A stretch of DNA of 63,774 bases, filler included, from Globobulimina sp. (lineage: Eukaryota), in assembly GCA_003354225.1 (NCBI GenBank). It is 46 parts of 46 records of this genome, joined end to end, with 100 filler letters (N's around TTAATTAATTAA, not from the genome) between each part and the next. Parts side by side here need not be neighbours in the genome. Positions count along the whole stretch, not along the records: positions 22,230 to 23,518 come from PIVH01019353.1; 45 more parts are not named here. One strand, written 5' to 3'. The translations under genes and the position numbers were made by a program. A model generated the notes under the pieces. It had not been told where the DNA came from. It saw nothing but the letters and a program-made list of their open reading frames with translations, and did no database searches. Below are positions 9,729 to 63,774 of the stretch, one piece after another (the first letter of the stretch is position 1; every line of letters begins with the position of its first letter).

Positions 9729-9928
9729 GCATATCAAAATGTTTTTCTGTACCCAATGTTTTGCCTATCAAAAAAAGCAATATCCAACTACACTGTATTT
9801 ACATAAAAAGCAGTGGCTAAACAGTAAATATACTGTTTGACTATTTGTTTTTTCAAAGAAAAACAGTGGAAGTGGATATTGTTTTTTTGATAGCAAAACA
9901 TGGGGTACAGAAAAATGTTTTGATATGC
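9729..9928. mobile_element. Degenerate foldback/MITE-like element (~200 bp)
   Basis: ~70-bp imperfect inverted arms (9729-9800 vs 9859-9928) plus a central AAACAGTA/TACTGTTT hairpin. Confidence 0.7.
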
Positions 9929-20740: not shown

Positions 20741-21526
20741 NNNNNNNNNNNNNNNNNNNNNNNNNNNNNNNNNNNNNNNNNNNNTTAATTAATTAANNNN
20801 NNNNNNNNNNNNNNNNNNNNNNNNNNNNNNNNNNNNNNNNAAGCTTTCATAATATTTTAATGCTTTCGTCACTCTTTGAACCGCTTTGCATCCATTTACT
20901 GCGCAGTTAGCACTGTCATTTATTTCTGTGCTTAAAAAAAAATTAAAATCAAGGCTTGGTTTGCTGGCTTTTGATGGTTTGGTGGTATTTGCAGTTTTAT
21001 TGTCTTTTGGATGTGGCTGATGATGATTCCCCATCGACAATTAATTGCTGAAACGAATGAGTTTAAAGGCTAAAATAATTATAATCAAACTGTTTCCATC
21101 CAAAAACAGTGCTGAATCTGTGTGGTTTCTTAAGTTATAAAAAACATTCCCTTTCCACAATGGCAATACCAATTACAAATTCTAGTTTTTATGTCGCGGT
21201 ATGTTAATATGTTTTTGTGTAGTTACTTCGCAATTATGATATATAAATTAAAAAGCAAACAAATAAGGCAACCAACTATTTGTTAATAAAGCAGGTTTGT
21301 CAAATGTAAGTTAACTAATATGACAGTTTATCTGACTATGATTCTTCTGGATCTGATAGATATTACGTCCTGACGTTAGTATAGGACGTCATGACGTCTT
21401 ATAAGATGTCCTGACGTCCACTTTAGTGATGCAAATGGATTAGCCCAGCAATCCACGCATGGTGGAACATTTCTTTGTTCGCTGATTTGATTTGACATGA
21501 AAAATATATATTTTTTCCAAATCAGA

Positions 21527-22075
21527 TCAGCGAACAAATGAGATTGGTGCTGGAAACGGATTAACCCAGCAAGTTATAATAAGTTCATCCAAAATATTAA
21601 TTGTTCCAATGGAATATGATGAAATTGGATGTCTTTTATGTTTAATATTATCGTTTACTACATAATTACACAGAAATTGAAAAGCATTGTTGCAGTCATA
21701 ATCGTTCCATTTCAGCGATGATGAGGCGAAATGAATGTAGTTTTGCGTTCCAGCATTGTTTGGTTCGCCATCATCCCATGGATAAATACTTAAATTGGTG
21801 CCATAATTAAATGGTGATGTATCTGTCCAGTAGTAATTACCTTCGTCATTTATGTCATTCAAACCTATCCAAATGTTAACATTTTCAGTTAATTCTGCTG
21901 CGGACATCATTTGATTATCATTATGTATTGAACATAGAGAGGAACCATGGTGGAATGAACAATATGAATCTGCGCCGCGAAAAGATAATGAAATATATTC
22001 ACGGGTGTAGTTTTGACAGAATATAATTTGGATGTTGACGGAAAATAATGAAAAGCAGAGCCATGGTAAGCACAT
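21527..22075 (-). CDS. Secreted C-type lectin domain protein
   Basis: Signal peptide; YC…LCSIH, WIGLND…EG…W.D, W…EPNN and WND..C…FLC. EPN is the mannose-type motif. Confidence 0.9.
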   Translation of the reverse strand: MCLPWLCFSLFSVNIQIIFCQNYTREYISLSFRGADSYCSFHHGSSLCSIHNDNQMMSAAELTENVNIWIGLNDINDEGNYYWTDTSPFNYGTNLSIYPWDDGEPNNAGTQNYIHFASSSLKWNDYDCNNAFQFLCNYVVNDNIKHKRHPISSYSIGTINILDELIITCWVNPFPAPISFVR

Positions 22076-22229: not shown

Positions 22230-23518
22230 TTAAATTTCTCAAATTCGTCTTCATCAATTGTCACTGCGGCAGTTACTCCATATTTTGTATTTAATAAGCT
22301 TGAAATGCACAAATCTTCCCATTGTTTAACACCACAAATCTTATTATAATTGTTTTTTTTCAAATCATTCAGAATTCTGTTTACAATTTGTCTATTTATT
22401 AAATATCCTGCACCACCTGGTCACAATTGAATAATTCACTAAGGTTGACGTGCAAAATGAAAAAGTTTTCGCTTAAGCTTAACTAAAATTGTCTTGTAAA
22501 TTATTCAATTGTACACCTGACGTAAATATTGATTTTTTATTATTTGGATTGGTTTGTAATCTGTTGCCTAACCACCACATTGCTTTATTTTTATATTTTT
22601 CCATTGCTATTAAATAATTCAATAAGTTTTTCAGAATAACATAAGTTACATCGTCCAATTTAAATATCCATTCAATTGAACTATCTCCTCCAAACTGTTG
22701 AATTGCCCACAATAAACTCATACCACTTTCGGCTTCAAACGGTGGTTCAATAACATCATGAAACAGTTTACCATCACTATTATTGTTGAATTTTTGTGAT
22801 TCACTGTTTACAAATTTCATATTTAAATCACATGATTTATATCGTTTACCCCATGTTCTTAAAATCATTTCTCTTCCATCCACCCCTTTGTCTTGAATGG
22901 ATGACCGAAATATTAAAAACAATACGCTCGACAGCACTGCGCAATCACTGTTTTTTTGTATTTGTTTCATTGTACAATCACATAATAAGGAAACCGTTTT
23001 ATCTCTGTTTGATATCATATCTTCATAGCGAACTACTATAAAACTATTATTATTATCCAGGGCAAGCACGCCGCTATAATATGCATTCCATGCTGTTATG
23101 GCCTGTTTTGTGTTTGTATTTGTGTTTTCGTTGCGATATAAATCTATCCAATGTAATGGATCAATTATAACAATAACAGTTAATATTAATGATTCGTGAT
23201 CCGATTGTTTTGCGTTTGTGTTTATGTTTATATTTGAAGCACAGTCTTCATTCAATGCATTGGATACATCGTATTCAAATTGATGCTCAGTGTGGATTGA
23301 TAAACGTTTCCACTGTTTTGCATCACAATATTTGTCATAATTGTAAATGAATAAATTGTGTTTCCGTTGGTGCGGAGTGTATTTATTATCAATGTAGTTA
23401 TCTGCTATTGGTGCTGCGCCATGATAATGTATTAATGCAGTCACCATCAGATACATAATAGCGACAAGAAACAAATATGTAAGCAATGCGCGGGAATTAA
23501 AGTATTTGTGGAGATTTA
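22230..23518 (-). CDS. GT31 core-1 beta-1,3-galactosyltransferase-like glycosyltransferase (partial)
   Basis: TWGKR and WIFKLDDVTYVI..NL. Splicing the 22417-22516 intron gives FTSGGAGYLI, followed by WEDL. Confidence 0.85.
22415..22519 (-). mobile_element. Introner-like TIR element forming a 100-nt intron
   Basis: TIRs GTCACAATTGAATAATT / AATTATTCAATTGTAC are flanked by direct repeat ACCTG (CAGGT on the coding strand). Confidence 0.75.
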
Positions 23519-26891: not shown

Positions 26892-26996
26892 TTTATCATG
26901 AACATGAATTGTAAATTGCCTTTAATTTTATGACCTAACTTGCACTCAAACCACTTGTTGAATAATTCAGTGTACGTTCTAACATTTCTCCATCAA

Positions 26997-27785: not shown

Positions 27786-28929
27786 TCATTTCTATCCTTT
27801 TAGGATCATATACAGGCAATAAAACAGGATTAAATGGTTGATCCTCATTCAGTACATGCCACACCACTGTCAGTAGTTTTCTTGCTATGGCTATTAACGC
27901 CTTCTTTCTTGATTTGCGGATGCATAATTGTTCAAATTTTCTTTTATAATGCGAGCCTTTTGTTCTTGAAGTTGCCCAGGCACATTGTACCATAATCCTT
28001 CGTAAGTACTTATTTCCATGGGTGATTGCTTTGCTTTTTAACTTTCCGGCACTTTCATCATTTCTGGGACGCAATCCTGTCCAGCCGCTAAGTTTTCCGC
28101 TATCAGCAAAAAATCGCATGTCGGCTCCTGTTTCTGCTATAATCTGCATGGCAGAGTGACTGCTTATTCCAGGAATACTCATCAATAATCCCATCTCCCG
28201 GGAATAATGCTGCTCACATAATTCTTCCATCTTCCTTTCCAGACTATTGATCTGGGCTTTGTACAGTTTGTACTGGTCATAGGAAAGCGAAAGCGAAAAC
28301 CGATGATGTTCTGCAATATGACCTTCAAGGGATAATCTTACCATTTCTCCTTTTGAGTTTACTATCCGGCCGTGAATACAGCAGGCAAGTTCTTCCACTG
28401 TATCATTGCCAGCTATAATTTGTTCTATTACCTTTAAAACACTCATCCCATTACTCTTGCTCACAATAGAGGTAATACGAATATTACACATCTCAAGAAT
28501 TTGTTCCATCTCATGAATGATCCGTGTGCACATCTCCTGTGTCTTAACAAATCGCCGGCTATAGGTGCGTAGCTCCCGAATGATCTTACAGGGAACCATG
28601 CTGCCACGAAGCATCCCTTTGTGCAATAATTTTGCAATCCATTGGGCATCTTTTACATCACTTTTCCTGCCTGGCATCTGCTTTATCAGATAAGGGTTGA
28701 CCAACATCAACTCAAAACCGGCTTCCTCCAGAATATTCCACACCGGAATCCAGTAAATCCCGGTGCTTTCCATGGCTATTTTCTTTACCCCTTCCCCAGT
28801 AAGCATTTGAGCCATTTCTCGTAGGTTCTCTGTAAATGTTGCAAATTCAATTACTTTACCGTATTTCTTCCCATCATAAATGGCACAAAATACAGTATCT
28901 TTGTGTACATCAAGGCCGCTGACTTTCAT
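27786..28929 (-). mobile_element. Bacterial IS110-family transposase/recombinase (3'-truncated)
   Basis: GLDVHK, MESTG and KSDVKDA (DEDD RuvC-like); IPGI, ESAGK, GNKYLR and ALIAIARKLL. No introns. Confidence 0.95.
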
Positions 28930-29174
28930 AAGCTTTTGTTTTTAAGTTTTATAAACAGATTGAGCTTCGAGCTCGTATATACAAAAGTAAAGCAGTGGCC
29001 TTGATTTTTATGTGTCTGTGTTTAATCGTTGATTATATGTAAGTTTACTAAAAAATCACCATGAAAGTCAAACANNNNNNNNNNNNNNNNNNNNNNNNNN
29101 NNNNNNNNNNNNNNNNNNTTAATTAATTAANNNNNNNNNNNNNNNNNNNNNNNNNNNNNNNNNNNNNNNNNNNN

Positions 29175-36713: not shown

Positions 36714-37206
36714 ATATAATTATAGTGTGTAATGTTTTGATTATTTTTATATTTTGTCTTTCTATGTTTTCCCGTTTGTCTTTTTTTTCCTTACATTTTT
36801 TTTTCTGTTTTTTTTTGATTTATTTTATTTAGCATAAAAAACTGTGATTTTGCGTCATTTTTGCTGACAATCCTTGAAGAAACGTGCGTCGCTATCATTG
36901 TTCCAATTCGGTGATCCTACAACTGTCTACAATAGAACTTCTACAACAGATCATAGTATAATATCAACATATGCACTAAACTGAAACTGCCGCACAATCG
37001 AGCCAATATGTACGTATGTGTATCTTTTAAAATTGAGGCCATTCAAACAAAAAAATGCAAATAATACTATATTTTTAGTAAAAGTTAAAATATTAATGGA
37101 TATTTTATTGACGATGTTGATTTTTTTTGTTTGAATGGCCTCAATTACGGATAATACAAATATCACACTTGTGAAATTTATCGAGATGTCACTATCGTTA
37201 GAATGA

Positions 37207-38972: not shown

Positions 38973-39224
38973 TATATGAACCTTTCCATAAATAATCCGT
39001 CGTTTCGTGGCCTTTTGTGTATACCATAATTTCAAATAACATCGTATGGCCTGTAATGTTTTTAATTATATGATAACGTCATAATAATAATAAGTTATAG
39101 TTAACACATCTCTCTCTCTCTAAGTGCATGCCATATTTTGCATGATATTTTTGTATGTTATTTGAAATTATGGTATACACAAAAGGCCACGAAACGACGG
39201 ATTATTTATGGAAAGGTTCATATA
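38973..39224. mobile_element. MITE with perfect 70-bp TIRs
   Basis: 38973-39042 is the exact reverse complement of 39155-39224; TA at both ends. Confidence 0.9.
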
Positions 39225-50065: not shown

Positions 50066-51009
50066 ATGGACTTTACTGGCAGGAAAAGACGGTCCCGCTT
50101 ATTAGTAAGTGGATATGTTAGAAAATGTAGGTCTCAATACACCCACACAGATATTATTAGTATCATTCAAGCATTCCATGGCCAGTCAGTATCATTCATC
50201 CATTCCACGGCATATGATCATTTATTTAGGTTTACGCTTATTGGAGATTCAGGTCAATTTAATGCAATTAAAAAATGCAGATACATACGGTCACTGTGAT
50301 AGCTGACAGCTCACTGAAATAAGCTGATCAATCCAGGTCATACTCAACTGACTGATTTCATTCTGATCGGTCAGACTCATTTTCTGATCGACTGAAATTC
50401 CTCAGCTGACCATCAACAATGACCGTACGTGTCTGCAATACATAAATGTACAATATAGGCGTAGGGAAAACCTGTCTAATGACGCGTTATGCCGATGATA
50501 AGTATACGGAATCACTATTTTTAACGGTTGGCGTGGATTTTCGCTTTCGTACAATTAATGTGGATGATCAAATTGTAAAATTGCAAATATGGGATACCGC
50601 GGGAATTCGTAGATTTAGGACAATTACATCATGTTATTATAGAATTGCGGATGCGGTGATGATTGTGTTTGATGTCTCTGATCGAGTATCATTTAATAAT
50701 ATCGATGAATGGTTATCTGATCTGGAGATATTTGGTCCAAAAGAAGTCTGTAAGATGATAATAGGAAATAAATGTGATATTCCATTATCAGACAGAGAAG
50801 TTACAGCACGACACGCTGGCCAATATGCACAAAATATGAAAATACCATACATTGAAACGTCTGCAAAAACTGCTGACAATGTTGGAATGGCATTCTATAG
50901 AATGGTACAGCAATTAATTAAAAAAAAATTAAAAAATACCATAGATGTTCTTCATTTAAATACTATACGGCAAAATAGTAAGGCTTCCTGTTCATGTATA
51001 ATCATATAA
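50066..51009 (+). CDS. Rab1-like GTPase with N-terminal LLVSGYVR module
   Basis: Intron 50253-50458 joins YDHLFRFTLIGDS|GVGKT. Also TVGVDF, WDTAGIR, YYR, NKCD, ETSAK and C-terminal CSCIII. Confidence 0.92.
50277..50436. mobile_element. MITE inside the Rab intron
   Basis: Imperfect TIRs GCAGATACATACGGTCACTGT / ACAATGACCGTACGTGTCTGC, flanked by AAT on both sides. Confidence 0.7.
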
Positions 51010-62486: not shown

Positions 62487-63774
62487 AAATATGCCAGAAA
62501 TCGTGGAAATAATGCAAACTTATTCCATACTCAATTAATTGTTAATCAATTAAAAGATGGAAACAAAAAGAAAAAGAATGAAAATGTATTACCATTTGTA
62601 AACATCAGAGGCAAAGGAAAGAAGATCAAGACAAGAAAGAAAGGAAAGAATACAATCAATAGCAATAATGATAATCATGGAAAGTAAATTAAATAAAAAG
62701 AATAAAGTCAACCAACCAATCTCCAATATAATTAAACCTATTCTCCACCTTTTTATCTGCTACTTTCTCTCCCTATGTATCTATTCCCTGTATAGTCACT
62801 TTGTAGCTACAGCTGCAGACAGAGAACATTTTATATTTACGAATTTGTATATTGAGTATTTTACTCATTACAATCCGTTAAATCACCATATAAAATCCTC
62901 TACTGCAGCTCCAGCTTTTTATTTTGAAACACGCCGAAATCAAAGTTTGAACAACAATTTTAAATTATTAATTAATCCCTCAATCTTATACAATTTAATT
63001 AACAACGAAAAACCAATTAAAACGACCTATAAACGCACACAAAAACACTCACAAAAACGCATTGAAAAACACAAACACCGATGGTAATATATAAAATACT
63101 GCAATACAACATAAATGGCCTAATAAACCCATCCAAAATGTCACAGGAAGATAAGTGCCATAAAATCTACCAATTAATGAAAGCTAAACAGATTGACTTC
63201 CTCCTATTGCAAGAGTGGAGCGCTACACTTCGATACCAGATAACCCCAAATGACACCCACTACACTGATAAAAATGACATAAAACATAACCTCAAATTCC
63301 CCATACACTATTTCCAAAACTATAAAGTTCACCACGTTGGTACAGAGACTGCCATTCTGTACCGGGAAACGCTTAATGTCACTCCATTACCTTCCCCACC
63401 AAATTATAACCATAAAAAAAGAACACATAACTGCCACATAACAAGCATAATATTACACAGTGGAGACCGAGATATAGGAATCCATTCACTGTATAACTGC
63501 CCGAAAAATCCGAATATCGACCAATTATTTGATTACCCAATGACCGTGGATCAGAACGTCATTGCGGGCGACTTCAATATCCCCAATACTGTATGGGGCA
63601 GCAATAGATCAACAACAGAATCCAGTAACTTTGTTGATGCGATCCATTTCCACAACCTACAAATCCTTAATATTAATAATCCATCATTCACTCATATACA
63701 TAAATCATATGGCACGAAATCCAATGTAGACCTCACGTTAAGCTGCGCCGAATTACAACGTACGAAATGGGATA
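62487..63774 (+). mobile_element. Non-LTR retrotransposon: end of ORF1 (to ~62687) and ORF2 APE endonuclease (63081-end)
   Basis: Unannotated open frame from ATG 63081: ILQYNING, LLQE, TAILY, SLY..P, IAGDFN…WGS, TH and VDLTL. Confidence 0.9.

Follow-up and report, generated by a model that had tools for sequence, protein, structure and literature searches.

The stretch of DNA analysed here, referred to as the window, is 63,774 nt long and consists of 46 unrelated contigs of 1288-1290 bp each, apparently sorted by length and joined through linkers of the form N44-TTAATTAATTAA-N44. Since the window is a chain of separate contigs, whatever lies across a linker is not a genomic neighbour of the contig that carries the intron described below (positions 22230-23518), and readings that make use of such neighbours are void. 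The gene content of the window is eukaryotic, with dynein heavy chain, Rab/Ras, nucleoporin, C-type lectin, ligand-gated channel and LINE-type endonuclease sequences, and the G+C content of the 46 contigs ranges from 27% to 43%. Two other conserved genes in the window found their best database matches at 54% identity (EukProt/MMETSP protist transcriptomes) and 63% identity (an ENA contig), respectively; since the nearest database proteins match these two genes at such levels only, the lineage is thinly sampled. The Atlas rows obtained for the dynein fragment mirror the composition of the database only. At the locus itself, two exons of a glycosyltransferase-like gene are separated by 100 nt that are filled nearly from end to end by a hairpin and bordered by a short direct repeat. 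The features are as follows.

22517 to 23516, minus strand: upstream exon of the Fringe-like glycosyltransferase-like gene, an open frame of 333 complete codons, followed by base 22517, which opens a split Gly codon.
22417 to 22516, minus strand: putative intron, GT..AG, 100 nt, phase 1, 30% G+C; its removal restores ...IFTSGGAGYL..., and a contig from a related organism (run X2, see below) skips 100 nt here.
22230 to 22416, minus strand: downstream exon, which completes the split Gly codon with its first two bases (22416-22415) and reaches the contig end.
22420 to 22513, unstranded: presumed inserted piece, 94 bp given a 6-bp duplication (22420-22514, 95 bp, given a 5-bp one).
22423 to 22439, unstranded: left arm of the terminal inverted repeat, 17 nt, 94% complementary to the right arm.
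22496 to 22512, unstranded: right arm of the terminal inverted repeat, 17 nt, 94% complementary to the left arm.
22414 to 22419, unstranded: copy 1 of the direct repeat, CACCTG (coding strand CAGGTG), spanning the 3' splice AG and the start of the downstream exon.
22514 to 22519, unstranded: copy 2 of the direct repeat, CACCTG, spanning the end of the upstream exon and the 5' splice GT.

The upstream exon extends to the contig end, with the start codon at or just past 23518. Its product aligned with P0001, a EukProt protein of 576 aa, at 43% identity across 99% of the exon product length, and the downstream exon matched residues 337-399 of the same protein at 56% identity. P0001 was the sole relative found in the protein database within the length range searched. 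In metagenome contigs, 182 pattern matches yielded no confirmed protein relative, and no solved structure related to the host protein was found by sequence search. The Pfam Fringe-like profile PF02434 scored 18.8 bits (E 0.0011) with exon 1 and 20.2 bits with P0001, both below the curated cut-off of 21, and the nearest Atlas clusters carry Galactosyl_T with scores of at most 0.88, which we treat as a lead only. The host gene is probably a distant relative of the Fringe-like/GT31-type glycosyltransferases, its profile score lying below the curated cut-off. The sequence-only reading, on which this analysis followed up, had called the peptide across the junction the conserved GT31 motif; the conservation was seen again in P0001, while the GT31 label goes beyond what the two Pfam scores allow.

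On the coding strand the locus reads ...ACG TCAG|GTGTACAATTG...CAATTGTGACCAG|GTGGTGCAGGA. Joining 22517 to 22416 gives a stop-free frame of 395 aa reading ...KSIFTSGGAGYLINRQ..., and this joined product aligns gap-free over the junction with P0001 (...RSIFTSGGAGYLMNK...). When the intron is read through instead, a stop is met after 12 further codons. The earlier proposal that excision of 100 nt restores FTSGGAGYL was borne out by both the open frame and the gapless alignment at the junction. The exact return to colinearity with a homologue supports the view that 22417-22516 behave as an intron, and the spliceosome of this organism presumably uses these splice sites.

The two arms of the terminal inverted repeat are 56 nt apart and pair at 16 of 17 nt, 14 of which form a perfect run, in agreement with the 14-bp perfect core noticed before. 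This 14-nt core, ACAATTGAATAATT, is present in the window solely at the two arms. None of 3000 mononucleotide shuffles of the intron gave a 14-nt perfect inverted repeat, the maximum being 13. Folded as RNA, the 100 nt form one long hairpin of -22.1 kcal/mol (z -3.95), and 0 of 200 shuffles folded as well; for the DNA fold of the intron z was -2.54, with 3 of 200 shuffles folding as well. Between the arm ends and the splice sites there are 3 nt on the 5' side and 5 nt on the 3' side. The piece has no long open frame, and Rfam returned no matches to it at E up to 1.

The flanks had been described as ACCTG on both sides. A direct repeat is indeed present, with a length of 6 bp (CACCTG) rather than 5, and the element size of 95 bp given earlier applies if the duplication is 5 bp and becomes 94 bp if it is 6 bp. 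A GT..AG intron is obtained in only one register of the 6-nt repeat. In that register the arrangement CAG|GT...CAG|GT was found as proposed, with GT taken from the upstream copy of the duplicated CAGGT(G) and AG from the downstream copy. Apart from 3 and 5 nt beyond the inverted repeats, the insert makes up the whole intron, and its removal is precise in the joined frame and in the X2 contig, as expected of an introner. It also resembles MITEs in being ~95 bp long, non-coding and AT-rich, with terminal inverted repeats (17 nt, 94% complementary) and a flanking direct repeat, from which an origin by transposition may be deduced. Unlike MITEs, it was found as one copy only in the data searched, and its 5-6-bp duplication is not tied to a superfamily.

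For comparison, all GT..AG pairs of 40-400 nt that would connect two open frames, each 50 aa or longer, were collected over the whole window, giving a candidate set of 1655 pairs. Among these, only 22417-22516 has AG|GT...AG|GT or a 5-nt boundary repeat. In addition, 12 other putative introns were chosen by eye, heuristic intron lists being noisy, and only one of the 12, in a Rab-like gene, was verified. They were mostly 43-105 nt long, with one of 206 nt, and their exon ends varied. No boundary direct repeat was seen by eye in any of the 12, and terminal pairing was mostly absent, the fold z being above -1.5 in 9 of the 12.

The locus was also recovered from public sequencing runs. A 1243-nt contig from run X1 (organism A, probably the source) carries the intron; this is an independent Logan contig, and the insert is therefore real DNA and not an assembly artefact of the window. 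Over 1228 nt the X1 contig departs from the window at two adjacent positions inside the insert, 22442-22443 (AG to CT), and nowhere else; this difference reflects either another allele or copy or a mistake in one of the assemblies. Run X2 (organism B, a close relative) gave a 1667-nt contig with a depth of 30.1, which joins 22413 to 22514 and skips exactly 100 nt. Six letters at the joint fit either side, matching the 6-bp direct repeat. The X2 contig shows no differences in the 184 nt on the shorter side (22230-22413) and 9 in the 1005 nt on the other (22514-23518). It is either spliced mRNA or an intron-less allele, and in both cases the same 100 nt form a removable unit, while a recent gain would follow only from an allele. 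In run X6, guessed to be RNA, contigs stop at 22405 and resume at 22514, and no contig spans the intron. Contigs of X2 and X6 extend 30 and 41 nt past 23518, and 448 and 433 nt past 22230, respectively. The ends of the X2 and X6 contigs are thus 11-15 nt apart at either side, which fits transcripts of ~1.67 kb, and from these contig ends we lean towards mRNA splicing as the origin of the X2 joint.

The reading that best accounts for these observations, and to which we give a probability of about 0.55, is that one insertion event created the intron: a piece bounded by inverted repeats landed on a CAGGT(G) site, which was duplicated in the process. A non-coding piece of ~94-95 bp carrying 17-nt terminal inverted repeats would have entered a CAGGT(G) site in the glycosyltransferase-like coding sequence, and 5-6 bp of the target would have been duplicated on both sides of it. 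On the mRNA strand, the donor would then come from the upstream CAG|GT copy and the acceptor AG from the downstream CAG|GT copy; splicing would take out the insert together with one repeat copy, by which the original codons ...TCA GGT GGT... (S-G-G) would be regained, and the paired ends would place both splice sites at the base of the hairpin. We infer that the piece arrived by insertion and that the direct repeat is a target duplication. Only 3-5 nt lie outside the hairpin, which is too short for an earlier intron and suggests that intron and insert were born together.

Insertion is favoured by the related X2 contig, which is without exactly these 100 nt. The interior of the insert matches the flanking exon over no more than 14 nt and was hence not copied from it; an origin by tandem duplication was for this reason rejected. 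Foldback-type elements are common on the other contigs sampled from the assembly, so such DNA exists in this genome. There are also points against the one-step origin. The repeat CAG|GT...CAG|GT partly overlaps the splice-site consensus, and convergence may account for some of the apparent duplication. These termini, taken with a duplication of 5-6 bp, point to no transposon superfamily that could be tested. The X2 joint, moreover, may be plain mRNA splicing, in which case it lends no support to absence of the insert from the DNA of a relative. The scarless, transposon-driven gain suggested by the sequence-only reading agrees with the architecture, the exact removability and the X2 contig without the 100 nt, but no further copy was found in the data searched and mobility of the piece was left unsupported.

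That the piece belongs to a specialised introner family with many copies, i.e., a non-autonomous transposon making introns at many sites, is in our judgement unlikely. The architecture would suit such a family, since introner-like elements of the same layout, with inverted repeats and target duplications, have been described; several unrelated foldback elements lie within only 59 kb of assembly, and a second intron, in the Rab-like gene at 50253-50458, has a strong hairpin (z -6.6). However, the 46 contigs of the window held no second copy of the piece, the best other match being 12 nt long (E 0.29). This arm match, at 26958-26969 in the 3' end of a putative 99-nt intron, is without a partner arm and was dismissed as chance. 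Of the 1,718,462 contigs of run X1 (271 Mb), a single one matched the 1289-nt stretch with at least 80% likeness and there were no partial alignments, a null result that is weak evidence of absence, since contigs are better at showing presence than absence and diverged copies may escape. The pattern of the inverted-repeat pair had no matches in metagenome, prokaryote-genome or viral collections. The introner family put forward earlier, and with it the expectation of further copies of the piece or of its inverted repeat, accordingly found nothing to rest on in the window contigs, the X1 contigs or these three public collections. The X1 contig also passes straight through the piece, where near-identical repeats would tend to break contigs. 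Neither the AGGT boundary repeat in any other intron candidate of the window nor, by eye, sequence in common with the piece in the other window foldbacks was found. The transposase-like frames of the window, one of IS110 type and one endonuclease/reverse-transcriptase, are located on unrelated contigs, and neither is tied to the ends of the insert.

The main rival that involves no transposon is repair of a staggered double-strand break as in Daphnia, in which filler DNA would have been captured and fill-in of the overhangs would have made the direct repeat. The available text on Daphnia pulex neointrons reports 33 cases in which 4-12 bp from an exon end recur as a direct repeat at the far end of the intron, and ascribes them to such repair (PMC4202315). 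The intron described here shares with them the flanking direct repeat of exon sequence, which is a point in favour of filler DNA, as well as a single event and the lack of a family; one copy in the data at hand suits a one-off event. Captured filler gives no reason for 17-nt inverted repeats placed exactly at both ends, and the inserts of Daphnia neointrons, unlike the present one, are not described with terminal inverted repeats in the accessible part of that study. The source sequence of the filler was not found in the window, and we consider this origin improbable.

An ordinary, older intron, whose boundary repeat is consensus plus chance and whose end-pairing arose in place and was possibly kept as a splicing aid, appears very doubtful. 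CAG|GT and CAG|G do resemble the consensus, and euglenid 'intermediate introns' combine canonical borders with pairing ends, as far as the source at hand describes them (PMC4770533). Against this, the repeat matches at 6 of 6 positions and is unique among the 1655 candidates, the 14-nt perfect inverted repeat did not arise in any of the 3000 shuffles, and terminal pairing is missing in most of the other putative introns (9 of 12 with z above -1.5).

Finally, the piece could be a mariner-like miniature element with its own terminal repeat starting CAGGTG, so that the 5' CAG|GT would be part of the inserted DNA and the exon would contribute the acceptor alone. A resemblance to Mos1 was checked in one paper, and we take it to be a lead only. 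On the coding strand, the 12 nt at the 5' boundary, TCAGGTGTACAA, are identical to those with which the Mos1 3' terminal repeat begins (PMC2642840), and the other end agrees with that start at ~10 of 12 positions with one gap, by eye. Yet a TA duplication is absent at either possible end, of the 12 identical bases, 7 belong to the exon and are required to encode S-G-G, the likeness ends after 12 nt, and excising an element so delimited fails to restore the conserved peptide, which makes such an origin highly improbable. A Transib-like reading, with termini which we take to be CACAAT... and a 5-bp duplication, was rejected, the 5 bp beside such ends being, by eye, different from each other.

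Creation of the intron by a single insertion has parallels in several described systems, and the introner elements of Amoebophrya are the closest architectural match, judged from the available part of their description. They carry inverted repeats of 8-20 nt between the 5' and 3' ends of one intron and direct repeats of 3-5 nt over the boundaries, the exon ends are brought together by a hairpin, and for most copies no family could be assigned (PMC7789003). These introns are mostly non-canonical, and the same organisation is given for only 1-15% of the canonical ones (PMC7789003), while the present intron is GT-AG. In Polarella glacialis, according to the accessible text, introner-like elements of class 14 duplicate 4 nt, AGGH, and those of class 12 duplicate 5 nt, NAGGH; in both classes the two splice sites are taken from the duplication copies and the mRNA is restored exactly (10.1101/2020.10.14.339549). 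As in these classes, a short target duplication containing AGG and H would supply both splice sites here. In contrast to them, one copy is known here, compared with 123 to >1000 copies per genome reported in that text for the Polarella classes, the duplication, (C)AGGT(G), measures 5-6 bp, and there is no relationship in lineage or sequence.

Introners of Florenciella likewise take both splice sites from the insertion site, and introners are defined, in the part of that survey at hand, by families of similar introns in one genome (PMC9860276). The present insert would agree with the surveyed introners as a non-autonomous insert with inverted repeats and a target duplication that makes up the whole intron and takes its splice sites from the target. 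It differs in that no family of similar introns was found in the data searched here.

The origin of new spliceosomal introns is a long-standing question, and the best-supported route is through small inserts whose target duplication supplies the splice sites. A clean single case, with inverted-repeat ends, a position in the middle of a conserved peptide and exact removal, would show that this route needs no specialised element, and any short insert that duplicates an AGGT target would be spliceable from the start. The locus is one real and clean case of a mechanism already in print for dinoflagellates and other protists. Should the piece prove to be multi-copy, or should relatives be found to be without the insert in their DNA, the lineage would offer a new place to watch intron gain. 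A broader conclusion, namely that this eukaryote is now gaining introns through diverse, sequence-unique foldback inserts in AGGT sites that are spliceable at birth through target duplication, can be offered only as a speculation with little probability. If true, a process like that of Amoebophrya and Polarella would operate in a lineage where it is undescribed, with this locus as a fresh example, and the hairpin-filled Rab intron and the other foldbacks of the window would be further traces of it.

Several additional structures of this general kind were observed on other contigs. The Rab-like GTPase intron at 50253-50458 (plus strand) is 206 nt long, GT..AG and phase 1, follows TCAG and splits the P-loop; joining its flanks restores LIGDSGVGKT. 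Most of it is a long imperfect hairpin of 162 bp, from ~50276 to 50437 (-61.7 kcal/mol, z -6.6). This hairpin begins and ends ~21-24 nt inside the two splice sites and so appears to lie within an intron that already existed; this foldback showed no flanking duplication. A foldback of 116 bp at 37031-37146, with perfect 25-nt terminal inverted repeats (AATTGAGGCC...), is located downstream of the N-terminal frame of a DEAD-box helicase (minus strand), and a 252-bp element at 38973-39224, upstream of an RCC1-repeat frame, has perfect inverted arms of 70 nt around a 112-nt loop. At the start of the contig with a UBR-box gene lies a palindromic element of ~174 bp (9742-9915), the flanking bases of which are inverted too; it may be longer and cut by the contig end. 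At 21474-21538 a 13-nt perfect inverted repeat encloses a 39-nt loop; a C-type lectin frame terminates within the first of the two arms. Beyond this hairpin, a second stretch resembles the CW.NPF end of the C-type lectin frame. A second insert-born intron was considered at this hairpin and rejected, as no GT..AG pair, searched by hand, joins the frames.

Two frames of mobile-element type were also recorded in the window. The first, at 27787-28941 on the minus strand, encodes 385 aa with DEDD_Tnp_IS110 and Transposase_20 domains (IS110-family transposase, bacterial type) on a contig of 39.8% G+C, and could be contamination, a symbiont or a transfer. The second, at 63066-63773 on the plus strand, is a LINE-type endonuclease/reverse-transcriptase frame reaching the contig end.
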